Source: a virus (lineage: Duplodnaviria > Caudoviricetes). Taken from it: a stretch of DNA of 64,000 bases. Position 1 is the stretch's first letter; each line of letters opens with the position of its first letter. Positions 6,611 through 26,577 of this stretch are shown one piece after another. The position numbers and the translations under genes are program-made. Location: the IMG/VR virus record IMGVR_UViG_3300014206_000007, positions 155,919 through 219,918 of that record. The stretch is one strand, 5' to 3'. The notes under the pieces are model-generated. The model was given only the letters and a program-made list of their open reading frames with translations. It had not been told where the DNA came from and searched no databases.

Positions 6611-8347
6611 CTATCGATTTTGTATTTGGAATATTTTACTTAATGCATTTGATAAGCTATCAGTAATTCCCCTAAATTCATTAGCCGGAATATCAGTAAA
6701 TTTATTTTTGATGGCTGCTGTAGCAATATCAATTTTTGCATTTAAATTATTCATCTTTAAATCAACTCCACATAATGTACCTAGATATTCAACTAACGCA
6801 GTATTCTGCAATGCCAAGAATGGTTTTGCTGTTGACGATACCATTAGCTGTGAATATAATGGAGTTATATCAAAAGTTACTTCAAATTCCGTTGGAATTC
6901 CATGTACTGTCCATGATGTATTGTCTGGGCCACCTCTAACAATATTCATATTTGTGATTATTGCTAAGTCTGAATTAAACCATCCTTTTTGGAAGGCTCT
7001 TACAATAAATGGATAGGTGTACATATTATTCGATAGTTGCTTTGGTAAGGATAAAGCTAATAAGTGCATTATTGGAACCATGCATCTTAAGAAAATAGAT
7101 AATTTATTACCATATAATGATGTAAATTTCAAACTACATGACATAGATTTTGAATAATTTACACCATCAACCATTTGTGGAAATACTAATCTTCCACCTT
7201 TAAAATAGTTTTTAGTTAAACCCATAAAACTCTTTATAAATCCATCGTTTTCTGATCCATTAAAAATTGATTGTAAATCATTTTCTAACGCTGAATCAGT
7301 TATTGAACCTATTGGTCCGCCGAATAAGAATTCAAGATTTCTGGCTACGCTATTTAAAGATGAATTGTTAATAATTTCTTCCAATTGTGATGCTGTAGTA
7401 TCGGTAGATATATTTTCATTAACACTAGTACCTTGATTTGTTACAAAGAAGTGCACATATGAATTATCTCCAACAGCACTACTTACTAATCTATCATAAG
7501 CACCTTTCATATCACCAAATACTGAATTTGAATTAGTAGCTGATGCCTTTTCAGGCTCTAACCAATAATCATAATTAAAGTTTTTAAGTTTCTGTGTTCC
7601 ATATGGAATTTTCTCATCACCGATTCCCATTAATATAGCCATCATTCTACATAAGTAGTTAACTACATTCATATATTCTTTTCGGTTTTGTTTAAATTCA
7701 TACAATTTACCATTTAATACGTTACTATCATTATCACTTAAAATCTTAGATTTTAATGCTGAATCTCCAGTTGTTATTCCTAATACTCTTTCATAGAATG
7801 CATTTTTCTGGTCTTTTGAAAAACCTGGTAAATAGTTAACCGTCCCAGGGCATAATGATAGTATACTAGGATTCGATAACATTGAATTTGCAAAAGCTCT
7901 TCCAACACCAGGTGTAATGTCATTGATATATTGAATATCGACATTCATATTAAATTGTGGTGGACATCCAAAAGCTCTTATATATCTATAAAACAATGTT
8001 TTGTATCCTGCCGTATTGACAGTTGTTTCAACAATAGTTTTACCAGTATCATCTATTGTATCATAATTTTCACTATAATCAATTTGATCTGGTTCTGCAT
8101 ATCCATATGCAGGTGGTTGAGATGTTGATGGAGGTGGAGTGCTTTCAGTAACTTTTGTTAGATAAACTCCAGAACACCACCCATTAACGGGAGATGTAAT
8201 ATGTATCCATCCATTTTTCGTTTCATTATTTTCACTTCGTAATGTAGTATTATACGGGAATGCTGAACCTGCAAGTCCATAAGAAACTCCTGGTCCAGAC
8301 CTTATATTTAATGCGCCACTGGCGTTTACTTTATATACAGTACTCAT
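6611..8347 (-). CDS. SH3b-domain virion/baseplate protein
   Basis: N-terminal ALNIRSGPGVSY..GWIHI..GWCSGVYL (SH3b); remainder resembles jumbo-phage tail/baseplate proteins. Confidence 0.65.
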   Translation of the reverse strand: MSTVYKVNASGALNIRSGPGVSYGLAGSAFPYNTTLRSENNETKNGWIHITSPVNGWCSGVYLTKVTESTPPPSTSQPPAYGYAEPDQIDYSENYDTIDDTGKTIVETTVNTAGYKTLFYRYIRAFGCPPQFNMNVDIQYINDITPGVGRAFANSMLSNPSILSLCPGTVNYLPGFSKDQKNAFYERVLGITTGDSALKSKILSDNDSNVLNGKLYEFKQNRKEYMNVVNYLCRMMAILMGIGDEKIPYGTQKLKNFNYDYWLEPEKASATNSNSVFGDMKGAYDRLVSSAVGDNSYVHFFVTNQGTSVNENISTDTTASQLEEIINNSSLNSVARNLEFLFGGPIGSITDSALENDLQSIFNGSENDGFIKSFMGLTKNYFKGGRLVFPQMVDGVNYSKSMSCSLKFTSLYGNKLSIFLRCMVPIMHLLALSLPKQLSNNMYTYPFIVRAFQKGWFNSDLAIITNMNIVRGGPDNTSWTVHGIPTEFEVTFDITPLYSQLMVSSTAKPFLALQNTALVEYLGTLCGVDLKMNNLNAKIDIATAAIKNKFTDIPANEFRGITDSLSNALSKIFQIQNR

Positions 8348-8630: not shown

Positions 8631-11600
8631 TTATCTACCTCGTGCAATAAGTTCATGAATTTCTCTTAATGAGAACTGACTCTTATCTGAAGTTGATTGT
8701 TTATTATTAGCTATAATAATTGGTTTTGCTCCCTTAACGGATTTATTATTGTTAAATTCACCATATACAATTGGTGCTTTATCTGGTTTATCTCTCATAA
8801 ATTCAATTCCATCTTTAACTACATCAATTAAAAGATTCAATTTATCTTCAACGCCAGTAGTATTAACTGCGATATCCAACTTATTGATTAAGTCTTCTTT
8901 TCTCAGTCTTCTACTCTGATATGCATCTCCATATAAAACATCTTCATCTTTATCCTTGACACGATTCATAGATGTTATATTGAATTTATTACTCTTATCT
9001 GCTTTAAGCAGATTTTCTTTATCTTTATCTGATATTAATGCTCCATATCCTTCGATAATAGAATTAATGTCATAATTTGCTGGGTTAATGTCTGAACCAT
9101 ATTTCTGATTAGCTCTTACTTCATAATGTAAATGGTTACCAGTACTTTCACCAGTCGTTCCAACATATCCTATTATTTGTCCTTTAGATACTGAGCTATT
9201 TTCTGGTATAGGTGATTTAGAATTCATATGGGCAAATAGATGATGATACCCAATATTATCTTTTATCAAAAGTTTATTACCATAACTATTATCATAGCCA
9301 TTTAAAATTACTCTTCCACTTACTGGTGTTGGTATTGGAGTTCCACCGGATGCTCCAAAATCTATTCCAGTATGTTTACTATATTTTCCAGTAATTGGGT
9401 GTTTCCTCATACCATAATCACTGGTTAATCTTCCTCCTAATGTCTTACTGAACCAATTTTTTATTGATGTATTAGTATTCATCAATGGCTTAGCCTTATT
9501 GGAAATATCAGTAGGTACTTTAGTTCCAGAGGAATTAGTGTTAGTTGCTTTATTTGCTTCTCTAGACGCCAAAACCATTTGTTTAGCATCAGAATAAGAA
9601 ACATTATTTAATTTCATTTGCATTTTGGCTTCTTCGATTATTGCTAGATTATCAATGATACTAGCTGCACCAGATAAATTACCATCTGGTCCGCCTTCAC
9701 CATAAGTGATTCCCATATTAAATCCAGCACTTCTTCTTGGACCATATTGCATTATATCGTATTTAGATAGATTTGATGATTCTATTATTTTATTTAACTT
9801 ACTAGAATATTTACTATCTGTCGCATATCCAGCCGTTTGTAGAGCAGATGTTGCCACTCTATAATTCTTAGTACTTCTTACAGCAGAATATCTTGGACTA
9901 TTCATTAATTTTGCATAGTCTAATATAGAATCCTCAATTGAATCATAATCTCTAAATTTTGCTATTGTGGAATATGTGTTGCCATATCCATCTTCTTCTT
10001 TTGTCAATTTTTCTTGAACTTTTCCAGTCCATCCTGAGCCCGCTTTGATTCCAAATATATTATTACCAATAGAACTTTTACCCCAGCCAGTTTCTAATAT
10101 AGCTTGTGCAATCAATACTGATGGTAGAATGCCATATTTATCTTTAGCTTTTAATGCTCCAGGCAAAATTTTATCAATAAATTTTGAAGAATCTTTACTG
10201 CCAGAATCATCGATTATTGCATCGATATTTATATTTCCGTCTTCGTCTATATACATCCCATTATCATTGAATATTCTAGTGTATGTAGCTCCACCTAATA
10301 AACTATCAATCCAATGTGTTCCAATTGATCCAACTTTACTAAGAATATCAGCGAGTCCGCTTAATCCTGATAATAAACTACTCTTAGGTTTTTGAGTTGG
10401 CTCAGTAGTATTAAATTGAGCTTGATTTTCAATAACCTTTTCGTCTTTATAACTTTTAGCAGAATCCCATATTGATAATGCAGGTAATGATGGTTGGTTT
10501 GGAGTTGATTTGTTTTTATTTGGTAATTGTGCGTTAAGAAAATCCATAGTTGATGGTAATTTTGGTAGACTAGTTTTATATGGAGCGCCAGGTCCATAAT
10601 TAACTTTATCTTTACTATATGACCATCCGTTAGTCATATCCTGTTGAATATTATCTGAATTATATGATTTAATTCTTCCATCAAGTGGATCTTGTATCAT
10701 AACATTACCGTTTGAATCTATTCCAGTAACTGCAACTACATGACCTGCCTTTGTAAATGGCGAGTCCATTTTACCATTACTCTTTCCTGATAATATTACC
10801 GGATTTCCACTTTTTATATTTTGAATTAAATTATTTTTTGATACTTTTGATGATTGAAGTCCTAATTTCCTTGCACCCTCAGTAAATAAATCTTCTTTAC
10901 TACCACCTTTAGCAATATATCCACTATCTTTTGCTAGTTTCGCAACAGTTAATGGGTCGATATCACGATTAGTTGTATTAGATGCTACATATGATAATGC
11001 AGTAGGACCACATCCTCCAGTATTCATTGTACTTCTTTTTCCATTAGGCAATGTACCTAATGAATAGTTAGCCCATCGTGGATCGGATTGTGAAGGTCCA
11101 TAGGATATATTATCTTTCTTATTAGCCATTTGACCATTGCCATAAAGATAATCAAGTCTTCCACTTCCAATATTACCACCAGATGGTGTTTTAAATGCTT
11201 CTTTTACCGATGATCCAAAATTCTTTAATCCGTTCCATGACTTAGTTGCCCATGATGGATTTTTCAAATCTTGGTAAGCTTTAGTCGATAAGTTTGTGCT
11301 ATTAGATGAATTATAGTTTGCGGTTTCTGTATCAAGAATCTGTTGGTTAGCTTTTAATTCCTTAACCATATCAGCACTACTAACACCGTTTATTTTTGAT
11401 AACTTTTCATATACAGTAGTTGCCATATCAAGTTTCAAATCATTTTTACTAATCTCAGAAGTTACCTCAAGTAGTATATCAAATATTGGTCCGATACCTA
11501 AACCGAGAATAGTTTTAAATGTAGATGAAATAGCAATCATTAACCAGTCAACACTGTCTTCACCAACTCCAAATAATTTATCAGCTTCAAATGCTCCTGA

Positions 11601-14600
11601 TATAAGGTCATATCCTGAGAATACTAAAGTCGCTAAACCAATAGTTGCTACACCAGTTCCAACTTTAGCAGTTGCTTCAACTGTTGCATTTGCTATTTTT
11701 GATGCGGCTTTTACAAAGAATGTATCTGAACCTTTAGCAAGTGTAGTTAATAATTTATCTTTCATTGCTTTTATAAATACAGTGAATCCACTTGGGACTC
11801 TATTGAATAATTTTACTATAGTTTTATTTGTACTTAATTCTGCCAATTTCTTAAATACTTCATCAACAAAACTTAGTACTTTCTTCTTAGAAGTTGCAGC
11901 TAATGCATCAGATGCATACATTGATTTCAATGCAATCGTTTCAGCAACATCTTTAACTGCTTTAGTTCCTTTAGATGTGTTAAGTGTAGTCCTTAATAGA
12001 TTAGCAGGAGTTTCAAACATTCTTGAACCTAATTTTGCACCCTCTTTAGCTCCAGATGCTAAATTAACATTCTTCAATCCCGGAATAAATCCTCCAACTG
12101 TTCCAGCAGCTCCTCCACTAACTCCACCTAAAATTGAACCCATCATACGGGCATTCTTTGGATTTGCAATAGAATTTCTGAATGTATTTAATGACCCAGT
12201 TATTAATCCCTCATTCTGTACCGTTTCAGGCTTACCCGTTTTTTCATTAAATATTATTCGACTTCCTCCAATAACTTGCTTTCCATTTTTATATGTCTTT
12301 ACATTAGTTCCATTCTTTCTAGCTTCGGCTGCCTCTTTACCATCAACTTCTTCGACTTTAGAACCAGCTATACTATCATATAACTTTTCTCCACTACCTT
12401 TTACAATCGCAACTCCAGCTTTAATTAAAGATGGAATTATTTCGACGATTAATCCAGCACTAGATTCGATAATTCCTGGTAAATACTTTCCAGCGGCACT
12501 TGATATTGCACCAATAGCATCTGGAATCTTATCAGAGAGAGTTGGTAATACAGATTCAGTCATAAAATCAACTATTTTTGTATATAAGTTTGGTAGCTTA
12601 TTCTTTAATAATGTGATTCCACCACCAGCTAATAATAATTTTGTTATATTATCAGTATTACTAAACCAATCAAATACAGAGCCAAACATACCACCAAATC
12701 CACTAGAGATTTTCGTTATAGATGCATTTTCAGAATCATCTGTAATAATTTTAGCTTCATCCTTTTTAGTATCAACTTTACTTGAAATTAAATCAGTGAA
12801 TTTAGCTTTTAACGATTTAGATTTTTCTGTTTCTACAGCTTCTCGTTGTTTTCTTGAATCTGATTGATTCTTTTTAAATATTGAATTAAATAGCGATTTA
12901 ATTCCTTTATTATTTATAGTCGACATCTCATCTTCAGAGATATTTGCACTATCAATAATTTCAGCGTCTATTGGTTCTCCAATATTTTTATCGCGTTTCT
13001 TTCTATCATATTTTCCACCAAATAATACTTCATTTAATGAATCCAATCTATCTAGAATATTAACTAATAATGAAGATTTTTTTGGTTGGTTTTTAGCCGT
13101 ACCCAATTCTCCGATAATATCAGAATAATCTGCGTCAATTATATTGGAATCGGTTGAATTTCTTTTAATATTTGAATTTGATAAGGCTCTAATCATAATT
13201 TCATTTGAATTTGGAATGATAGTTGAATTATCATCTGAAACAATAGTTGCTTCATCAGGGCTATCTGTCCATCTACTTTTATTTTTATTATACCAAGATT
13301 TTAAATCTCCTCTAGTATATTCCTCAGATTGTCTATAATTATCCCATTCAAAATTTGGTACATCAGAATATTTATTAATGTCTTCATCCGTCATAGTACC
13401 ACTATTTTTATTAATGTTATATTTCTTAAATGCGGAGTTTAATGTTCTTTCTTTTCTAGCTTTCTTCTTCTTTGAATAGTCTTTATGAATTTGATCTTCT
13501 GCCATTTTGTACATAGCATCTCTCAAATCATCAACCATACCAGTCATACGATCTTGGTATTCAGAAGTTTTCTCTCTAGCATGTTTCTGTTCTAATGACT
13601 CAAGCATTAATGGAGATTTTATAGATGATCCCATCCCACTAGGCATTTCAGCAGATGATTTAGATTTCTCAAATCTATCTTTCCAGTCATCCTTATTAAA
13701 GATTAAATCTTTTAAATTCTTTTCAGTCGATATACTATCTGTAGATAAACCAGCTTTTACTAATTCATTCTTTCTTCTCTTGATCATTTCATCAGTCCAA
13801 AAGACTTCCTTATACTGGTCTTCTTTAGCATATTTCTTTCTTAATGCATCTACACGCTTCCACTTATTTTGCTCGTCTCTATCTTTCTTCTGGGCTTCTT
13901 TATTTTCTCGTTTATCTTTTCTTACATCTCTCCAACGTAAACTATTACGTCCTTCTAAACCCATACGTTCATCATAACTTTCACGAGCAGCATCTAATGT
14001 ATCTTTATCGCTTACTACTCTTTTAATATCTTTAGCTCTTCCAAATAATTTTTGGAGATTTCCAAATATATTATCAGAATATATTCCTTCTTCATCTTCT
14101 TTGCCCCATTTAGCAGATAACACATCTTTAGATGCTCCAGCATAATTTTTCCAGAATTTCATTTCTTCCTTAGTTCTAGTTGGAGCTGCTATCATAGATC
14201 CTAATCTTACTGCCGCAACTATTGGAGTAGATGCCGCTTTTAGGCCAAAGCTTGTTGCTTTAATGGTCATTTTTCCGATATTTCCTAATAATGATGTAAA
14301 CGGATTAAATATTTTCTGCATTGTCGCTTTAAATATAGAAGTAATCCCATCAGTTATTGTATCGAATTTTTCTTTTACAAAATCGGATATATCATCCTTT
14401 AATCCACCTAATGCATCAACTAATGGTCCGAATGCTAATCTAAATGGATATTCAATTTTATCTTTTGCCCAATATGCAAAGTTTGTCATTTCATCATGTA
14501 CTGTTTGCTTAACTGGGTCAAATATATTTACTACTAAACTATTACGTACTTCATTTAATAAACCATTTTTGAGTCTCTTTCCTGTAGGTTTACCATTTTC

Positions 14601-17600
14601 ATCTAATTCTTCAGTTCCAAATAAAAACTGTTTAAATCTATCAGTTTGAGAAGCTATTCCAAGTCCTAACCCAACTAGACCCATTCCAACTGGTCCGCCC
14701 ATTGATAAAGCTGAGCCAACTAGACCCATTTTACTTAAAGTTAATCCTGTTAATGCTCCAATTCCTAAACCTTTTAAACCAGACTTTAGATATGGCTTAG
14801 ACTTTGCAAATCCTGCTGAGAATTTATTCATTCCTTTAGAAAGAACCCCGCCAACACGTTTATTGTCTTCATTCTTTTCACCGAATAAAATACTTTTTAT
14901 CTTATCATTATTTAAGAATAATCCCGTACCCATGCCTAATAATGCACCACCAATTGGTCCACCTGGTAATAATGCATTAGCAACAACGCCAAATGGTCCT
15001 GTTGGTCCACCAAATACGACGTGTTTCATTGCTCCTAATGTTCCGGCTCCAATTATAACTGGAAGATTCTTTTTAAATGAATCTTGTAATCTTTGTGATA
15101 TTAATCCTCCAACTTTCTTTCCATCTTTTTCACTATATTTACCAAACATGAATTCTTGGAAAGTTTTTGATTGGGATAATATCGATAATCCCATTCCTGC
15201 AATAGCTCCACCGACTGGTCCAGTTGGTAAGAATAAGCCTCCTAATAATCCTAATGACCCTCCAGATAATAATGATACTCCTGCTCCAGCTATACCCGCT
15301 GTCAACATCCTTGGAAGATTCTTTTTAAACTTTTTAAGAAAACTTTCTTCTTTTTCTTCTGGAGTTTCTTTGTCGTCACCAAATAAAGCTACAGCAAATC
15401 TGGTTCCACTCTCTTTTATATGATCCGTTGTATTGATAACTGCTTCTTTAACAGTATCATGTACTTCTTCGTTTGTTATAACCATTGGTAATAATGATGC
15501 ATTAGTAGTATTTTTAATTACAGCTTCATTAGAATTCTCTTTATTATTAGAAGTATTCGTTGCTGTATTAGTATTTTCTACTGTTGCTTCATCATTTTTT
15601 TCTTTCTTTTTGGTTATATCCATCCAAGAAAACATACTCTTATATATGTCATTTTCTTTATATTCATCGGATTTAAAAACATACTTCATCGTGTTATCAA
15701 ATGTAGTATTATAACCTGATTTTATATTACTCAAAACACTATCTGGATTTGCTTTATGTTTCTTACCTTGCCTATTAGTATATTCCTTTCCAGTAAATGA
15801 GTATTTCAAATAATCAAAACTATCAAGTAGCATTTTTGTTAATCCGGAAAATATCCCATCTTTTTCATTAAATAAATAGGAACGAATCTTATTTCCAAGC
15901 TTTTTAACATTTTCGTTTTCCCAAAATTTATTAAAGAATCCAGTTTTGCCAAATAATTTAGAAACTATACCCGAGAAAGAACTAAACATTCCTAACACTG
16001 ATGCCTTAATAGAATCAGACATCTTAGTTCCAGCATTAATAAATTTTCCCAGTCTACTATCATCTGCCGAAGCAGTTTCTTTATCAGTTTCAAATTTTGC
16101 TTCTGAATTTTCGGAAATAACTTTTTTATTCATTGCTAAATCAGCATCGATATCTTTCGATGATTTTTTCATTATAGAATCATAATTTTCATTATTAAAC
16201 TTTGATTCTTGTTTCTTTAAGAAATCGTTAGAAATTCCTTGATTTCCTATTCCAGAATTAGTTAATCTAGATGATGCAGGAGCAATCTTAGCTGTATTTG
16301 CTAACGGCGGTCCACGTTTTGATCTTCTTCTAGCTGCTAATTCATCTGGAGCTTTTTCATCCACTGCAACTTGCCTTTTAGAGGTAGACGCTTTTACTGT
16401 ATTATTATCTACTAATGTAGTGATATCAACATCTGGAAGTTCAGCTTCTATATTTCTGGTACCTTGTGGTTTATTATATCCCATCATTTTACTGAAAAGA
16501 TAATCATCAGCTTTATTAACTTTCTTTTCTACTGTATCTCCAAACTTTTCAACTCCGCTAATTCTAAATCTATCTAAAAATTTCTTAGATTTAGTCTTAA
16601 CTAGTTGAGAATAGAGTTCTTTCTTTACAATATCTTCACCAATACTCATATCGAAAGGGTTATCTCTCATAGCTTTATTATACTTCTTCATCAATTGAGG
16701 AGTTATTTTAAATTTACTATCAAATTCTGGGAAAGATTGAGCAATATCTAAAATATCCTGCTTAATACTACTAGGAGATGATGATGTTCCTGTTCCACCA
16801 TATCCAGAATTTTCAAATAAATCAATTTTTCTCTCTTTATTAAGTTTAGAAGAATTTTCATTATTGAATAGATTTCGATATACTGATCCTTCAATAGTTC
16901 TTTCAAGGGATTTTGATTGTTCATTCATCGCCTTAATGGAGCTCTGGAGATTCTTTTCCATAGACATAATTACATCTTTAAATTCCTCATTAGGTAAAAC
17001 ATTTTGAAGGATTCCAGATGCTTGCGTTGTATAACTCTTATAGTCTAAAGTACCACTAAGACGTTGATTTAATAGTTCATTCAATTGCTGCTGGATATCT
17101 TTTATTTCATTTTCCTGAACCATATTATCTTCCAAATAAGTAGTCATTTTATTCAATGAATCATAAAACTCCATTTGTACTGTAGAGTCTCTATCTTCAT
17201 AAAATTGCTTTTCGATTGAACTCTTTGAACGAAATACACCAGCGTCCATATCATAATAGCGTTTTTCTTGCTTAGTTAGAACTGATTCTATACTAGCAAG
17301 ATATGAAGGAATAACTTCAACTAATGAACGTTGCGCTTCACCATTCCATGATAATGCTTCTTTATGGAAATTTCCCATATTAACATTTTTCTGATTTGGA
17401 CGTTTAGCTCCAAGAAGTTCACCCATGAATCTCATAATGCTACTTTTACTATAATCATTACCTATGTCACCAACTCTATATAATGCATTTTCAAAATATG
17501 CCTCTAGATTTTTATCCGCTTTTTCTAATGATTTCGTTATTCCTTTTGGAATTGTCTGTTTTATTCCAGCTTCCAATAGTATTTTAGGTAAACGGATAGG

Positions 17601-18500
17601 AGTATTATCTCCAAATGCACTTTGCATATCATACATCATTTTTACCATATTAAACATAGAGCCAACTATAGTATTATTAAAATTCTTTTTAATGAAGTCT
17701 TTATAACCTTTAGGATTAAATCCTCCACTAATAAATCCTAGCGGGTCTTCAGGAAAACTCATATCACTATTTGGGTCCATACTCTTTTCAAGTCTATTTA
17801 AAGTTTCCAAATTCTTATCAAAATATTCCAACATTGCCTGATTAACTACACTAGTATTTTGATTTTGAAACTCCATTAGACCAATAATATTCTGATTAAT
17901 AGAAGTTAAATTAATATTAATTGCCATAATACCAGAATTTATTTTATTGATACCAAACATTGCAATGTTGGCTTGCTTTAATGATGCCATTTGGGCACTT
18001 TTAATTGTCGAAGATGAAAGCACATTAGTCATTTCTTTAATGCTATCTACGGTAGCATTACTTCCAACTAATACTGCCTTTCCAATAACCTTATCACCTT
18101 CGGTTATAGATTGCGTATCATCAGAGCCACTTTCATCAGAATCATCTGATGATGTGTCTGAATCATAATCATTATTATAGTAATCTATATCACTAGATAT
18201 CTCGTATAAATCTGATTGATTTTTTTGAAGAGAGAAATTCCCTGAACGGATATCTTCCATTGCTGATGCAATTACATCCTTTGCTTGTCTTCCGATTGAT
18301 GATGAATCAAGCGATCTATTTTGGGAATTGACTAGTGTCTTAGTATTTCTTATAAACGATATCGTATCTTTTGCTGCATCTGCAGTTGATATAGCTGTCG
18401 AACTAAGATTTGGGGTTATACTTTTCAATACATTTAACGATGAGAAAGCTATCGATTTAGATGCATTTTTAACCCAAATATTTGCTTTAGGCTTATTCAT
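8631..18500 (-). CDS. Giant tape-measure-like virion protein with C39-like peptidase, glucosaminidase and M23 peptidase domains
   Basis: 3289 aa; Gly-rich hydrophobic repeats (GGPIGGALLG); QSDPRW..GCGPTA..HVVAV..DP (C39-like, ~11095-10620); AQAILETGWG..NNIFGIK..YATD (glucosaminidase, ~10190-9750); HTGIDF..HLHYE (M23, ~9440-9080). Confidence 0.85.
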   Translation of the reverse strand: MNKPKANIWVKNASKSIAFSSLNVLKSITPNLSSTAISTADAAKDTISFIRNTKTLVNSQNRSLDSSSIGRQAKDVIASAMEDIRSGNFSLQKNQSDLYEISSDIDYYNNDYDSDTSSDDSDESGSDDTQSITEGDKVIGKAVLVGSNATVDSIKEMTNVLSSSTIKSAQMASLKQANIAMFGINKINSGIMAININLTSINQNIIGLMEFQNQNTSVVNQAMLEYFDKNLETLNRLEKSMDPNSDMSFPEDPLGFISGGFNPKGYKDFIKKNFNNTIVGSMFNMVKMMYDMQSAFGDNTPIRLPKILLEAGIKQTIPKGITKSLEKADKNLEAYFENALYRVGDIGNDYSKSSIMRFMGELLGAKRPNQKNVNMGNFHKEALSWNGEAQRSLVEVIPSYLASIESVLTKQEKRYYDMDAGVFRSKSSIEKQFYEDRDSTVQMEFYDSLNKMTTYLEDNMVQENEIKDIQQQLNELLNQRLSGTLDYKSYTTQASGILQNVLPNEEFKDVIMSMEKNLQSSIKAMNEQSKSLERTIEGSVYRNLFNNENSSKLNKERKIDLFENSGYGGTGTSSSPSSIKQDILDIAQSFPEFDSKFKITPQLMKKYNKAMRDNPFDMSIGEDIVKKELYSQLVKTKSKKFLDRFRISGVEKFGDTVEKKVNKADDYLFSKMMGYNKPQGTRNIEAELPDVDITTLVDNNTVKASTSKRQVAVDEKAPDELAARRRSKRGPPLANTAKIAPASSRLTNSGIGNQGISNDFLKKQESKFNNENYDSIMKKSSKDIDADLAMNKKVISENSEAKFETDKETASADDSRLGKFINAGTKMSDSIKASVLGMFSSFSGIVSKLFGKTGFFNKFWENENVKKLGNKIRSYLFNEKDGIFSGLTKMLLDSFDYLKYSFTGKEYTNRQGKKHKANPDSVLSNIKSGYNTTFDNTMKYVFKSDEYKENDIYKSMFSWMDITKKKEKNDEATVENTNTATNTSNNKENSNEAVIKNTTNASLLPMVITNEEVHDTVKEAVINTTDHIKESGTRFAVALFGDDKETPEEKEESFLKKFKKNLPRMLTAGIAGAGVSLLSGGSLGLLGGLFLPTGPVGGAIAGMGLSILSQSKTFQEFMFGKYSEKDGKKVGGLISQRLQDSFKKNLPVIIGAGTLGAMKHVVFGGPTGPFGVVANALLPGGPIGGALLGMGTGLFLNNDKIKSILFGEKNEDNKRVGGVLSKGMNKFSAGFAKSKPYLKSGLKGLGIGALTGLTLSKMGLVGSALSMGGPVGMGLVGLGLGIASQTDRFKQFLFGTEELDENGKPTGKRLKNGLLNEVRNSLVVNIFDPVKQTVHDEMTNFAYWAKDKIEYPFRLAFGPLVDALGGLKDDISDFVKEKFDTITDGITSIFKATMQKIFNPFTSLLGNIGKMTIKATSFGLKAASTPIVAAVRLGSMIAAPTRTKEEMKFWKNYAGASKDVLSAKWGKEDEEGIYSDNIFGNLQKLFGRAKDIKRVVSDKDTLDAARESYDERMGLEGRNSLRWRDVRKDKRENKEAQKKDRDEQNKWKRVDALRKKYAKEDQYKEVFWTDEMIKRRKNELVKAGLSTDSISTEKNLKDLIFNKDDWKDRFEKSKSSAEMPSGMGSSIKSPLMLESLEQKHAREKTSEYQDRMTGMVDDLRDAMYKMAEDQIHKDYSKKKKARKERTLNSAFKKYNINKNSGTMTDEDINKYSDVPNFEWDNYRQSEEYTRGDLKSWYNKNKSRWTDSPDEATIVSDDNSTIIPNSNEIMIRALSNSNIKRNSTDSNIIDADYSDIIGELGTAKNQPKKSSLLVNILDRLDSLNEVLFGGKYDRKKRDKNIGEPIDAEIIDSANISEDEMSTINNKGIKSLFNSIFKKNQSDSRKQREAVETEKSKSLKAKFTDLISSKVDTKKDEAKIITDDSENASITKISSGFGGMFGSVFDWFSNTDNITKLLLAGGGITLLKNKLPNLYTKIVDFMTESVLPTLSDKIPDAIGAISSAAGKYLPGIIESSAGLIVEIIPSLIKAGVAIVKGSGEKLYDSIAGSKVEEVDGKEAAEARKNGTNVKTYKNGKQVIGGSRIIFNEKTGKPETVQNEGLITGSLNTFRNSIANPKNARMMGSILGGVSGGAAGTVGGFIPGLKNVNLASGAKEGAKLGSRMFETPANLLRTTLNTSKGTKAVKDVAETIALKSMYASDALAATSKKKVLSFVDEVFKKLAELSTNKTIVKLFNRVPSGFTVFIKAMKDKLLTTLAKGSDTFFVKAASKIANATVEATAKVGTGVATIGLATLVFSGYDLISGAFEADKLFGVGEDSVDWLMIAISSTFKTILGLGIGPIFDILLEVTSEISKNDLKLDMATTVYEKLSKINGVSSADMVKELKANQQILDTETANYNSSNSTNLSTKAYQDLKNPSWATKSWNGLKNFGSSVKEAFKTPSGGNIGSGRLDYLYGNGQMANKKDNISYGPSQSDPRWANYSLGTLPNGKRSTMNTGGCGPTALSYVASNTTNRDIDPLTVAKLAKDSGYIAKGGSKEDLFTEGARKLGLQSSKVSKNNLIQNIKSGNPVILSGKSNGKMDSPFTKAGHVVAVTGIDSNGNVMIQDPLDGRIKSYNSDNIQQDMTNGWSYSKDKVNYGPGAPYKTSLPKLPSTMDFLNAQLPNKNKSTPNQPSLPALSIWDSAKSYKDEKVIENQAQFNTTEPTQKPKSSLLSGLSGLADILSKVGSIGTHWIDSLLGGATYTRIFNDNGMYIDEDGNINIDAIIDDSGSKDSSKFIDKILPGALKAKDKYGILPSVLIAQAILETGWGKSSIGNNIFGIKAGSGWTGKVQEKLTKEEDGYGNTYSTIAKFRDYDSIEDSILDYAKLMNSPRYSAVRSTKNYRVATSALQTAGYATDSKYSSKLNKIIESSNLSKYDIMQYGPRRSAGFNMGITYGEGGPDGNLSGAASIIDNLAIIEEAKMQMKLNNVSYSDAKQMVLASREANKATNTNSSGTKVPTDISNKAKPLMNTNTSIKNWFSKTLGGRLTSDYGMRKHPITGKYSKHTGIDFGASGGTPIPTPVSGRVILNGYDNSYGNKLLIKDNIGYHHLFAHMNSKSPIPENSSVSKGQIIGYVGTTGESTGNHLHYEVRANQKYGSDINPANYDINSIIEGYGALISDKDKENLLKADKSNKFNITSMNRVKDKDEDVLYGDAYQSRRLRKEDLINKLDIAVNTTGVEDKLNLLIDVVKDGIEFMRDKPDKAPIVYGEFNNNKSVKGAKPIIIANNKQSTSDKSQFSLREIHELIARGR

Positions 18501-22383: not shown

Positions 22384-25300
22384 ATGCTTTACGATCAAAT
22401 CGTACCAATGCGATTATATAATAATCAAACAAAATTACTACTACCTCGTGGGGATAAAGTAGGGTTTTTTAATGCAATATTTATGCTATCAAAAAATCAA
22501 AATTTTACATTAAATATAATGAATACAGAGTTTTTTGGAGATAGGGAATCATATTATAAATACTATTATATCGAATCGATATATAAGACAAAAATCGGTC
22601 CAAAGAATGTCATCCAAAATAAAAAGAAAGAAGTTATTGATAACTTCACAGCTATGAAATTTGCGGATCATATAAAATTCGTTCCGTATAGTTCAAGAAA
22701 AACGCATTTTTCAAAAGGTTTTAATACGATAATTGACTTAGGAAAATGGCATGAATTATTTTTCCAATACATAATTAAAACTACTCCTAAGTTTGTATGT
22801 GAAAGTTACATTAATTACTTAATGTCAAGAGTAAATGAATCATTCTTCAATGAATATGAAAAAGTTCTTTTCATTGATTTATATGATTGGATTGGTAATA
22901 CTAAAGAAGGAGAAAAGGCAATAAAAATTAGTTCTAAATCTCTAGATAACCCAATAAATATTATACTATATACATTATATAAATTTCCAGAGTTAGTTTT
23001 AACTTTAGGTAAATTAGATGTTATAATAGCCGATTCTAAATCTAATCAGTTTTTAAAGATTCCAAGTTCTAAATTGAATAAACTTAATATTCAGAAAATA
23101 AAAACATTATTAACACAATTTGATGGACTGGAATTTATTGAAGAAGAGTTAGAAGCTCAAATTGACCCAAATACCGCATCTGTTAATAAAATAGTAAATA
23201 AAATTATACCAACTTCTTCTAAAGATGAGATTGAAAAAAGAAAAATGAATATTATTAATTCATTAAAGCATAATCTTGTAGGAGATATTGATGATATTTC
23301 TGATGAAGTTATTGATGACCAGCATAATACTGATTCAATAAAACTCGAAGATGATGATGAAGATCAATTAATAACTAAGACGGCAAATGATTACCTTGAT
23401 GAGAATCAAGAATTATTATCTGGTGTAGATGATAAAGATGTATTGAAAGAACTTGAAGAGTTCATCAAGAAAAGAGTTTATGTAGCAAAAATACTTCCAA
23501 CTAAATCTCCAAAAGAAATGGAACGAATTCAAGAGCTTCAAGATATACAGAAAAGTGTAATTGGATTACCATCTTTTGAAGATTTAAAAAGCAAAATGGT
23601 TGATGAAACAGATTTTTCAGATTTTGTTACTACGGCAAATCCTAACATAGTAAAATCATCATATGTTAATTTCGATAAAAACTATAACCAAAAGAAATTA
23701 GAAAAGGATATAGATAATTCCGTCGGAATATTAAGTAGAGCTATGCATGGTATTTACATTACTGATAAAACTGAAGAAGATGCATCAGACCAATTGAATT
23801 TGAAGAAGACAGTAACTTACTCATTAGAAGATGAACGTGGAAAGAAAATGGCTCTTAAATTTGATATTCCTATAATATTAGAAGATAAATATCTTTATAT
23901 TAACGGATCAAAAAAGACCATTCAACATCAGCTAATTTTAAAACCTTTAGTTAAAACTTCTCCAAATACAGTTCAGATAGTTTCATTCTACAATAAAATC
24001 TTTATTGAAAGAAAGGGTGATACAGAATTAATTGCTTCATCTTTGAAAAAGTTTTTATTGAAAAATTCAGAAGAATTTAAACTTAAATTTGGAAATGCAT
24101 TAGTTAAAAATAATGAATATCGAACTTCACTTGAATTCGATATATTAGCAAAAAATATATATAGCTTTACAATTGGCCAAAATGTATTTATTACAGATAT
24201 AAATGACCTCCATTCTATATTAACTAAAAATAATATTCCATTTGATAAAATAGACCAAAAGAAATATTTTATTACTGGGTATAATAAAAAGACAAAAGAA
24301 GTCTTATATATTGACAAGAAAACTGACTATAGTGAGCACATTATGTCATTTATGTCAGACTCAGATAAGAGCCAATTAGCAAATCAAAAAGTTGGTAAGA
24401 GACTTATGTATGCTCAATGTACAATAATGGAAAAACATATTCCACTAATATTATTTATGTTATTCTGTGATGGTTTTAAATCAGTTATGGAAAAATCAAA
24501 TGTTGAATATAAAATAATTGATAAAAATGAAGCAGAAAAATATGATAAATTTGTATATGGAGTAACTCAATTAGCTGATAAAGCTATATTATGGAAAAGA
24601 TATCCATTACAAAATTCATTATTGATGAATGGATTGCAACCTCTTCAAATGGAATTATATTCATCAGAAGAGCTAGAAAGTAAAGAAACTTATATCTATT
24701 TATTATCACAATATTATGCATATGCAAATATGGCATTTAACTTAGATCAGTATAAAGACTTTATGATTGATGATGTTACTAAAGAAATTTTAATGGACTT
24801 CAATCTCCCAACTGATTTAGTATCACTATTGGCATATTCAGCAACATTATTGTCTGATAATGAGTATATACCAGAAAATGATTTAAATAATATGAGAATT
24901 CGTAGCAATGAATTAATACCTTTCCATATTTATAATACAGTAGTAAAAGCATATAATTCTTATAGAAAGACACAACATAAAAAGAATCCTACTAAAATAT
25001 CAGTTAAGCAAGATGCTGTTATTTCAGCAATAATGGAATCAAAATTAATTGAAGAGCATTCTGTTTTAAATCCTGTCTTGGAATTAGAGAAAAATAGAGC
25101 AGTTACTTATAAAGGAGATAGAGGTATTAACTTAGAGAAAGCTATGACAATTTCAAAGCGTGGTTATGATGAGTCTATGCTTGGAATATTAGGTATATCT
25201 ACTAGTACCGATGCAAACGTTGGTATTGTAAGACAGTTAACATTAGAGCCTAATATAACTTCAACTAGAGGATATATTCAAACCACTGGTTTAAAAAATG

Positions 25301-26577
25301 TTGATAAATTAAATTCCGCTAATCTATTAACACCTGCTGAATTATTGACTCCTCTTGGAGTCCAACATGATGACCCAACGCGTACATCAATGGCATATAA
25401 GCAATCAAAATATATGCTCATGATTGAAGATTCAGACCCTGTTATGATTGGTAATAAAGTAGAATCAATTGTTCCATATCATATGTCAGATGAATTTACT
25501 ATTGTCTCAGACGATAATGGTAAAGTTATTGATGTTGATAATGGACTAATAGTTATCCAATATAACAATGGAGCATATAAAACTATTGATACTAATCCAC
25601 AAGTTAAGAAAAATTCATCTTCAGGTTTCTATGTTAAGAATACATTAACATGTGAATTAAAACTGAATGATAAAGTAAAAAAAGGCCAAATATTGGCATA
25701 TAATAAAAATGCATTTAAACGAGGTTTCGATAACGATGATGTATCAATGAATTTAGGAGCATTAGCTAAAGTAGCATGTGTTCCAAACTGGGATATATTT
25801 GAAGATAGTAAACCTATAACAAAATCATTATCTGAAAGAATGGCATCTGTTATGCTTTCTGAAAAAGAAGTAGCTTTAAGCAAAAATTCATATGTAGACT
25901 TTATGGTTAATATCGGTGACCATGTAAATACTGGAGACGTATTAATAAAATTTGATAGTGCTCATGATGACCCATTTGCTGCCGCTTTTCTAGATGCAAT
26001 AAGAGAAGACCAGAAAGAAGATATAATTGCAGATAATATTACAACTATAGCATCAAAATTTACAGGTGTAGTTGCAGATATCAAAATATACTGCACAGTT
26101 GACCCAAATGAACTAAGTCCATCATTAGAGAAAATCGTAAAATCATATTATCGTAGAGTAAATAAGAAAATTAATATACTAGATAAATATTCTAATGAAG
26201 GAGATAGTAGTTATTATAAGAGTGGTAATTTAATAACTGAAGTTCCAGAAAAGATTACCCCAAATATACAAGGAAAGATAAGAGGAACAAAAGTTGATGA
26301 AGGAGTATTAGTTGTATTCTACATTGAATATAAGGATTTAATGAGTAAAGGAGATAAATCATGTTCTGAATTTGCATTGAAAGGTATAGTATCTCATGTA
26401 ATTGAGGAAGGATTAGAACCTTATTCTGAATTTAGACCTGAGGAAGAAATATCTACATTTGTAGCTCCTTTGGCAGTATCAGCAAGAAAGACTCCGTCAT
26501 TATTTTTAGCAATGTTTGGTAATAAACTTCTTATTGAAGCTAAGAATCAGTTAAGAGAAATTTATTACGAAGAATAG
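22384..26577 (+). CDS. rpoB: Phage multisubunit RNA polymerase beta-like subunit (probably virion RNAP)
   Basis: YINGSKKTIQHQL, TSTDANVGIVRQL, HDDPTRTSMAYKQSK, FEDS, KGDK..KGIVS match conserved beta regions; ~450-aa N-terminal extension. Confidence 0.9.
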   Translation: MLYDQIVPMRLYNNQTKLLLPRGDKVGFFNAIFMLSKNQNFTLNIMNTEFFGDRESYYKYYYIESIYKTKIGPKNVIQNKKKEVIDNFTAMKFADHIKFVPYSSRKTHFSKGFNTIIDLGKWHELFFQYIIKTTPKFVCESYINYLMSRVNESFFNEYEKVLFIDLYDWIGNTKEGEKAIKISSKSLDNPINIILYTLYKFPELVLTLGKLDVIIADSKSNQFLKIPSSKLNKLNIQKIKTLLTQFDGLEFIEEELEAQIDPNTASVNKIVNKIIPTSSKDEIEKRKMNIINSLKHNLVGDIDDISDEVIDDQHNTDSIKLEDDDEDQLITKTANDYLDENQELLSGVDDKDVLKELEEFIKKRVYVAKILPTKSPKEMERIQELQDIQKSVIGLPSFEDLKSKMVDETDFSDFVTTANPNIVKSSYVNFDKNYNQKKLEKDIDNSVGILSRAMHGIYITDKTEEDASDQLNLKKTVTYSLEDERGKKMALKFDIPIILEDKYLYINGSKKTIQHQLILKPLVKTSPNTVQIVSFYNKIFIERKGDTELIASSLKKFLLKNSEEFKLKFGNALVKNNEYRTSLEFDILAKNIYSFTIGQNVFITDINDLHSILTKNNIPFDKIDQKKYFITGYNKKTKEVLYIDKKTDYSEHIMSFMSDSDKSQLANQKVGKRLMYAQCTIMEKHIPLILFMLFCDGFKSVMEKSNVEYKIIDKNEAEKYDKFVYGVTQLADKAILWKRYPLQNSLLMNGLQPLQMELYSSEELESKETYIYLLSQYYAYANMAFNLDQYKDFMIDDVTKEILMDFNLPTDLVSLLAYSATLLSDNEYIPENDLNNMRIRSNELIPFHIYNTVVKAYNSYRKTQHKKNPTKISVKQDAVISAIMESKLIEEHSVLNPVLELEKNRAVTYKGDRGINLEKAMTISKRGYDESMLGILGISTSTDANVGIVRQLTLEPNITSTRGYIQTTGLKNVDKLNSANLLTPAELLTPLGVQHDDPTRTSMAYKQSKYMLMIEDSDPVMIGNKVESIVPYHMSDEFTIVSDDNGKVIDVDNGLIVIQYNNGAYKTIDTNPQVKKNSSSGFYVKNTLTCELKLNDKVKKGQILAYNKNAFKRGFDNDDVSMNLGALAKVACVPNWDIFEDSKPITKSLSERMASVMLSEKEVALSKNSYVDFMVNIGDHVNTGDVLIKFDSAHDDPFAAAFLDAIREDQKEDIIADNITTIASKFTGVVADIKIYCTVDPNELSPSLEKIVKSYYRRVNKKINILDKYSNEGDSSYYKSGNLITEVPEKITPNIQGKIRGTKVDEGVLVVFYIEYKDLMSKGDKSCSEFALKGIVSHVIEEGLEPYSEFRPEEEISTFVAPLAVSARKTPSLFLAMFGNKLLIEAKNQLREIYYEE

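Follow-up and report, generated by a model that had tools for sequence, protein, structure and literature searches.

The window analyzed here, a stretch of 64,000 nucleotides (positions 155,919 to 219,918 of IMG/VR virus record IMGVR_UViG_3300014206_000007), comes from a complete virus of the class Caudoviricetes, with a genome of 219,918 bp, direct terminal repeats, and a G+C content of ~28%. Its largest gene, a giant open reading frame (ORF) at positions 8631..18500 of the minus strand, encodes the 3289-aa protein P0001. An initial annotation of this DNA noted that the dipeptide Tyr-Gly (YG) recurs between the enzyme domains in the C-terminal part of P0001. It proposed that YG is a cleavage signal, perhaps for an embedded Cys protease, in a processed polyprotein. 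The follow-up described below finds the linker YG motifs to be conserved in a large family of giant proteins, in which they bracket a C39-like peptidase with an intact set of catalytic residues, and we tentatively attribute the motifs to processing by this peptidase. All coordinates within the P0001 gene refer to the minus strand.

Domain organization of P0001

P0001 is tape-measure-like and is predicted to be located in the virion. It matches none of the tape-measure families in Pfam, and its sole match to a PHROG tape-measure family comes via the M23 domain. The N-terminal body (aa 1-2452; 11145..18500) contains no domain recognized by Pfam; it includes Gly-rich hydrophobic segments at aa 1062-1285, 2008-2036, and 2276-2348. 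Three enzyme domains are recognized by Pfam within the last 800 residues.

The C39-like domain (aa 2469-2630; 10611..11096) is a papain-fold Cys peptidase domain, as indicated by Pfam, AlphaFold2, and Foldseek. Its match to the Peptidase_C39_2 family (PF13529) spans aa 2493-2605 and scores 54.3 bits against a cutoff of 24. A search of the whole phage genome returns the same match, and this is the only C39-type domain that it encodes. The same region shows a weaker Pfam match to the AvrRpt2 family, C70. The predicted catalytic residues are the oxyanion Gln2471 (11088-11090), Cys2497 (11010-11012), His2587 (10740-10742), and Asp2604 (10689-10691). Cys2497, located in the motif GGCGPT, is the sole Cys in all 3289 residues, and the close homologs P0003, P0004, and P0005 likewise contain a single Cys. 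The Pfam search reveals no ABC (ATP-binding cassette) domain in P0001, which is therefore not a PCAT transporter. There is also no Pfam match to the C80 cysteine protease domain, so any likeness to the cysteine protease domain (CPD) of MARTX-type toxins is an analogy of logic only.

The glucosaminidase domain (PF01832, GH73-type; aa 2782-2910; 9771..10157) scores 109.4 bits against a Pfam cutoff of 30.2 and also matches PHROG endolysin families. It is preceded by a conserved segment of ~45 residues (aa 2713-2757; ~10230-10364) with the pattern L-x-D-I-x-x-K-x-G-S-I-G ... G-G-x-K-Y-x-R-I-L-x-D-x-G. In the homolog P0008, a near-copy of this segment also follows the glucosaminidase, as if each hydrolase came with an adaptor module of its own.

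The M23 peptidase domain (aa 3042-3133, within a fold of aa 2999-3147; 9102..9377) scores 85.6 bits against a cutoff of 28.7. Its metal ligands, H-x3-D and H-x-H, are invariant (H54, D58, H134, and H136 in A3, the 30-row alignment of C-terminal regions). The C-terminal tail (aa 3248-3289; 8634..8759) ends in a conserved L-x-x-I-H-x-x-I-A helix with an invariant His and possibly anchors the protein to the tail tip.

YG motifs in the linkers

All eight linker YG sites listed in the initial annotation are present, at positions 11139, 11097, 10593, 9741, 9699, 9042, 8928, and 8760, each number being the low base of the Gly codon. Three of them flank the C39-like domain. Site A (aa 2453-2454; 11139..11144) has the sequence DYLYGNG; its family form is φ-G-[Y/F/N]-G-x-G, where φ is a hydrophobic residue. 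Site B (aa 2467-2468; 11097..11102; NISYG) lies 3 residues before Gln2471 and 29 residues before Cys2497. Site C (aa 2635-2636; 10593..10598; KVNYGPG) follows the last strand of the domain by five residues. Two further sites follow the glucosaminidase: IMQYGP (aa 2919-2920; 9741..9746), whose YG lies 9 residues past that domain and is found in this phage only (its closest relative has QNGP), and GITYGEG (aa 2933-2934; 9699..9704). The remaining three are IIEGYG (aa 3152-3153; 9042..9047), just past the M23 domain, DVLYG (aa 3190-3191; 8928..8933), and PIVYG (aa 3246-3247; 8760..8765), the last with the family form φ-x-Y-G-x-G.

The distribution of YG along P0001 is highly uneven, with 13 occurrences in aa 2450-3289 versus 3.7 expected (shuffle p ~5e-4) and a single one in aa 1-2449 versus 4.7 expected. 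Within the linkers (the 419 residues of the C-terminal 850 aa that belong to none of the three folds), Gly follows 8 of the 16 Tyr residues, compared to 1.34 expected (shuffle p = 5e-5), so that the recurrence that had first drawn attention holds up statistically. In the C-terminal 850 aa, YG ranks first among dipeptides by overrepresentation (z = 4.7). Five more YGs, omitted from the initial annotation, lie inside the folds: at aa 2789 and 2839 in the glucosaminidase and at aa 3029, 3073, and 3134 in M23. The two that were checked, both in M23 (S-x-YG-x-R and GYGN), are motifs conserved in that family rather than linker signals. Elsewhere in the phage proteome, YG occurs 187 times versus 151 expected.

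The lone YG of the N-terminal body (aa 567-568; 16797-16802) is found in the context NSGYGGTGTSSS, within a Ser/Gly/Thr-rich stretch. The closest homolog, P0002, has GYG at the matching place (aa 563), and the YG at aa 567-568 may be a further example of these sites. Two other proteins of the phage, both encoded on the minus strand outside the window, are rich in YG: a 595-aa protein at C1:72685-74472 (8 YGs versus 2.6 expected) and a 2022-aa protein at C1:130564-136632 (17 versus 9.5). Each of them contains one or two matches to φ-G-Y-G.

Structure models

For the C39 region, an alignment with flanks was built from 110 homologs that share 30-50% identity with the query. The AlphaFold2 model based on it shows a papain-like fold at aa 2470-2629 with a predicted local distance difference test (pLDDT) score of 93-98. 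Site A is disordered (pLDDT <50), and site C, past the end of the fold, has a pLDDT of ~65. Site B is located at the edge of the fold, with Tyr2467 in a beta bridge. Foldseek searches with the C39-like model retrieve ComA, PCAT1, staphopain, StbD-CT, and PeiR with E-values of 1e-6 to 1e-4. The best superpositions are with the double-glycine peptidases ComA and PCAT1, with template modeling (TM) scores of 0.76-0.79 (normalized to the target chain) and root mean square deviations of 2.6-3.0. The best E-values belong to StbD-CT (8ssk, the top match), Cpe1, and staphopain.

In the model of the C-terminal region, based on an alignment of 30 rows, the M23 fold is predicted with confidence, and the segments containing EGYG, VLYG, and IVYG are disordered (pLDDT <50). 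The only columns in the disordered C-terminal segments that are at least 90% conserved are the Gly residues of two YG motifs, those at aa 3246 and aa 3190; at the latter site, the Tyr is often replaced by Ile or Val. Islands of 2 to 4 conserved residues in disordered and otherwise unconserved sequence are the hallmark of short linear motifs read by another protein surface. A complex prediction for the C39 core (aa 2463-2631) with a linker peptide (aa 3221-3264) gave a score of 0.02, which counts neither way.

Motif and peptidase in the protein family

A word-indexed search found ~100 giant metagenomic relatives of P0001, proteins of 2000 to 5400 aa encoded on contigs of up to 280 kb. An exhaustive search with the C39 region retrieved 3135 proteins at E-values up to 0.001; among the best 150 of these 3135, nearly all are giant and carry the domain at about residue 2300-3000. 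Among short homologs inspected for natural splits of the gene at the motif, one of 316 aa starts two residues before the oxyanion Gln; such short ones may be contig-end fragments.

The initial annotation had staked its proposal on YG being conserved and enriched at the linkers of homologs, and this is what was found. The six closest homologs (33-70% identity) share most of the linker YGs. All six have EGYG past M23 as well as the Gly residues of ITYG and of the site that follows C39; in the 30 aligned C-terminal regions, only a subset has the EGYG motif. Many of those 30 members show a further φ-[F/Y]-G-x-G motif ~12 residues before M23. The three motif copies that flank the C39 domain retain their Gly in 88-95% of the 110 aligned homologs. 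At site A, Gly is found in 97 of the 110. Site B, [V/I]-G-Y-G in the family, has Tyr in 92, Phe in 8, and Gly in 100 of the sequences and the invariant oxyanion Gln follows it at a distance of three to six residues. Site C, φ-G-Y-G, has Tyr in 94, Phe in 7, and Gly in 105, and conservation collapses beyond it. In the distant members P0059 and P0066, GG[R/K]G is found eight residues before the oxyanion Gln, at the place where the lineage of the query has φ-G-Y-G, and may be a lineage-specific variant of the bracketing motif.

Across the family, the motif takes the form hydrophobic-G-[Y/F]-G, often followed by x-G. GYG is found 325 times versus 89 expected, and YG as such is only 1.23-fold enriched over the whole family. 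In 195 giant homologs, the strict form [VILMA]-G-[YF]-G occurs at 0.20 per 1000 aa before the C39 domain and at 2.52 per 1000 aa from this domain onward, a 13-fold difference, with counts peaking just before (93/195) and just after (96/195) the C39 domain. Absence of the C39 domain from giant M23-bearing proteins goes along with a motif density of 0.14 versus 2.13 per 1000 aa. The density of the distal motifs also falls with the state of the C39 flanks, from 2.22 through 1.71 to 0.41 per 1000 aa, the last value being that of proteins whose C39 domain lacks [YF]G flanks.

In each of the seven proteins scanned with Pfam, the C39-like domain precedes all other enzyme domains. The set of enzymes downstream of it varies and includes VgrG3-like C, glucosaminidase, NlpC/P60, amidase_2, phage tail lysozyme, and M23 domains. 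In six diverse members scanned in this way, each hydrolase domain is likewise bracketed by the motif. The catalytic set QCHD or QCHN is kept in 101 of 127 domain copies of the family, and Gln, Cys, and His are invariant in the 110-row alignment. The Cys protease assumed by the initial annotation accordingly appears, by its residues, to be catalytically intact, and it occurs in almost every family member and has the motif on either side.

Many homologs (P0005, P0006, P0013, P0018, P0019, and others) contain a second C39-like copy ~400 aa downstream, in which the Cys is replaced by Gly, Ser, Asp, or Ala, as in a pseudo-protease. A loss of the catalytic Cys in P0005 despite the presence of YG sites was considered and rejected: this protein carries an intact copy further upstream, and it is the degenerate second copy that was aligned. 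A few members have an extra intact C39-like copy near residue 700-1000, which is also flanked by GYG.

Genomic context and relatives

The surroundings of the P0001 gene include a tail-tube-like gene (45-1010), a gene for a virion structural protein with an SH3 domain (6611-8347), and one for RusA; neither a chaperone gene nor a sheath gene was recognized directly beside the P0001 gene. The window also encodes the beta subunit of a multisubunit RNA polymerase (RNAP) of the phiKZ/AR9 type (22384-26577, plus strand). A homolog with 44% identity to P0001 is encoded on the 257-kb contig L002 (NCBI GCA_023663985.1), which was binned with a Lachnospiraceae genome. L002 shares with positions 1-26577 of the window the same order of genes: RNAP beta, small genes, the giant gene, the SH3 virion protein, RusA, two large genes of unknown function, and the tube-like gene. 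The binning of this relative is a hint to the host range, no more.

A megablast search with 12 kb found no cultured relative. In tblastn searches with the N-terminal 2440 aa, the C39 region, and the last 140 aa, there was either nothing or uncultured fecal contigs and one 25%-identical match in an Enterococcus phage. The genome of Bacillus phage AR9 has no match to a profile of the C39 domain plus its flanks. Only the glucosaminidase and M23 domains of P0001 match phage lysins. No cultured phage was found with the N-terminal body, the C39 region, or the C-terminal modules, and hence no published virion proteomics bears on this family. No prohead protease of the T4/phiKZ type (PF03420) was detected in the phage genome, in a search that was equally silent on control genomes.

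A putative self-processing polyprotein

The combination of a conserved motif at domain borders, mostly in disordered linkers, with an intact peptidase in its midst suggests, by analogy with known C39 enzymes, that the linker YG motifs are processing sites for the C39-like peptidase of P0001 itself. We hold this explanation tentatively, at somewhat less than even confidence. The peptidase would cut after the Gly of φ-x-[Y/F]-G, starting in cis with the sites on either side of it and moving on to the other linkers. The products would be the N-terminal body, the protease, two wall hydrolases with their adaptors, and a short C-terminal anchor, and the separate enzymes would then act on the host wall at infection. 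Cuts at all eight Gly residues would yield the body (aa 1-2454), a 14-aa spacer, the protease (aa 2469-2636), an adaptor plus glucosaminidase (aa 2637-2920), a second 14-aa spacer, and an adaptor plus M23 (aa 2935-3153). They would also release pieces of 38 aa and 56 aa (aa 3154-3247) and the 42-aa C-terminal tail with its I-H-x-x-I-A helix. The initial proposal of a processed polyprotein is thus supported in part. It gains from the conserved border motif, from the intact and motif-bracketed peptidase, and from a precedent for cutting in cis by a C39 enzyme; its argument from the maturation of jumbo-phage virions falls away (see below).

Several observations weigh against self-processing, and some of them also speak for a protein that is never cut. 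No cleavage product has been seen for any member of the family, and no cultured phage has the protein. The sites of P0001 deviate from the family consensus, with the Gly before the Tyr replaced by Ser, Asn, Thr, Leu, Val, or Gln. Pro directly follows the Gly at three of the eight sites and is 3.4-fold enriched at this position family-wide; papain-like enzymes usually disfavor Pro there. YG could instead be a conserved linker signal that remains uncut, either a hinge or a motif for docking in the lumen of the tail tube, on the baseplate hub, or on an assembly chaperone, and the C39-like domain could equally be a third wall hydrolase, an endopeptidase or isopeptidase. In line with this, the best sequence match of the domain profile among solved structures in the PDB is the pseudomurein endoisopeptidase PeiR (E = 4e-7), and C39-like peptidase domains are reportedly listed among the modules of mycobacteriophage endolysins. 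The 43 family proteins without a [YF]G flank have few GYGs and a mean of 1.9 intact C39-like copies, which makes the domain look more like interchangeable hydrolase cargo than like an enzyme for processing. On the C39 tree, there are only three changes of flank state, giving three independent contrasts, so the association of the motif with C39 is a clade trait without phylogenetically independent support. However, a hinge needs no invariant aromatic-Gly pair at a fixed distance from the edges of the folds in otherwise unconserved linkers. C39 stays in first place while the other hydrolases shuffle, and the motif stands on both sides of the protease, as in self-excising proteases, for which there is a close cis-processing precedent. 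We regard an uncut linker signal as a real, if doubtful, possibility.

The YG motifs might also be cut by another protease, from the maturation of the phage head or tail or from the host, with the C39-like domain acting on the cell wall. The motif lies in accessible disordered linkers, and lambda gpH, T5 pb2, and Tuc2009 Tal are processed by activities that are unidentified or not embedded in the substrate. Still, YG is not notably enriched in the remaining proteome, the genome has just one C39-type domain, and the tight bracketing of the embedded protease would have to be a coincidence. The maturation of jumbo-phage virion proteins, invoked in the initial annotation, does not transfer to this case: the phiKZ-type prohead protease cuts after A-X-E, on head proteins, and the tape-measure protein of SPN3US is counted among the tail proteins (PMC10052503). 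This specificity and these substrates make the prohead protease an unlikely agent for the YG sites, and cutting by any other protease seems rather improbable to us. Chance, composition, or motifs intrinsic to the folds could also account for the YG excess: 5 of the 13 C-terminal YGs are inside folds, with both of the checked M23 ones being family motifs, and the family-wide excess of plain YG is slight. Against that stand the linker-only statistics, the first rank of YG among dipeptides, the abundance of GYG, and the conservation of the linker sites down to ~30% identity. Chance and composition are rejected as the cause on these linker statistics and this conservation, and we give such explanations hardly any credence.

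Returning to self-processing, we consider it possible, with marginally more reserve than for the cleavage of P0001 alone, that a large and wholly uncultured clade of jumbo phages that encode an RNAP uses a self-cleaving polyprotein to build its tail or ejection apparatus. In this clade, the C39 peptidase would excise itself and free swappable wall hydrolases at φ-G-Y-G, and sister lineages would use other "dialects" of glycine sites.

Implications

The polyproteins of RNA viruses and giant bacterial toxins are well-known cases of self-processing by a papain-like protease embedded in the protein. A literature search turned up no account of such self-processing in a virion protein of a tailed phage, and none of a phage tape-measure or tail protein that pairs an embedded C39 protease with a punctuating motif. 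If confirmed, processing of P0001 would be the first described case of a polyprotein strategy among the virion proteins of tailed phages, and it would explain how a single gene for 3000-5000 residues delivers several independent wall-degrading enzymes. It would also name a protease for the processing of tape-measure proteins; we know of no agent identified for this step in model phages. The protease and its punctuation motif would provide a sequence rule for annotating hundreds of giant metagenomic proteins, and the excised hydrolase modules, with their motif-marked borders, would be candidates for enzybiotic screening. Should the motif serve in docking or as a hinge instead, it would still be a strongly conserved and unexplained linear motif in a very abundant protein family.

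Comparison with known systems

Among phage proteins, lambda gpH (processed to H*), T5 pb2, and Tal of Tuc2009 and TP901-1 (cut in a Gly-rich stretch) are trimmed proteolytically during assembly or infection. T5 pb2 and Tal also have a C-terminal M23 wall hydrolase in a tail-internal protein. We know of no processed tape-measure or tail-lysin protein that has a recognizable embedded protease or a recurring site motif. The MARTX and large clostridial toxins offer a parallel in logic: a giant delivered protein carries a variable array of effectors, and a conserved embedded Cys protease (CPD, C80) cuts the interdomain linkers. The CPD differs from the peptidase of P0001 in its clan CD fold, its inositol hexakisphosphate switch, its cleavage after Leu, and its action in the eukaryotic cytosol. 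PeiR and PeiW (family C71; 8z4h), enzymes of archaeal viruses, are cell wall endoisopeptidases with a Cys active site, but they are stand-alone proteins with no flanking motif and no sign of self-processing.

The C39 peptidases of the PCAT/AMS type (ComA PEP, 3k8u/5xe8, and PCAT1) have the same arrangement of Cys, His, and Asp as the P0001 domain and cut after a Gly in the P1 position; the leaders that they process have hydrophobic residues upstream. In contrast to these enzymes, P0001 has no ABC transporter, its putative substrate is not a bacteriocin leader but the linkers of the protein itself, and the first Gly of the Gly-Gly motif is replaced by Tyr or Phe. A relative with an aromatic-Gly site is AvrRpt2, which cuts after the Gly. 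The motif that AvrRpt2 recognizes is P-x-F-G-x-W, and the enzyme also processes itself (10.1101/583054).

The closest parallels are StbD-CT, from a CdiA-like protein of Citrobacter rodentium (8ssk/8ssm), and Cpe1 (9l5u), which likewise have a C39-type papain fold at the end of a very large delivered protein. Both serve as interbacterial toxins, have topoisomerases as the proteins they cut, and show a single processing site and a Gly-Gly motif; Cpe1, an effector of a type VI secretion system, cuts GyrB and ParE at the Gly-Gly motif in LHAGGKF (PMC12136450). The P0001 domain, a putative peptidase that shares ~13-22% identity with these proteins, has an aromatic-Gly motif at ~8 linkers, wall hydrolases as neighbors, and a predicted phage virion protein as the carrier. 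The C39 peptidase toxin StbD-CT processes itself in cis between Gly158 and Ala159, after Gly157-Gly158 in a linker; the cut is located 25 residues upstream of the catalytic Cys183 and is blocked by changing either the Cys or both Gly residues (10.64898/2026.05.07.723447). This bears out the view of the initial annotation that C39 peptidases cut after Gly motifs and supplies a precedent at a nearly equal distance from the Cys: in P0001, the bracketing Gly2468, after which the predicted cut would fall, is found 29 residues before Cys2497, compared to 25 in StbD-CT.

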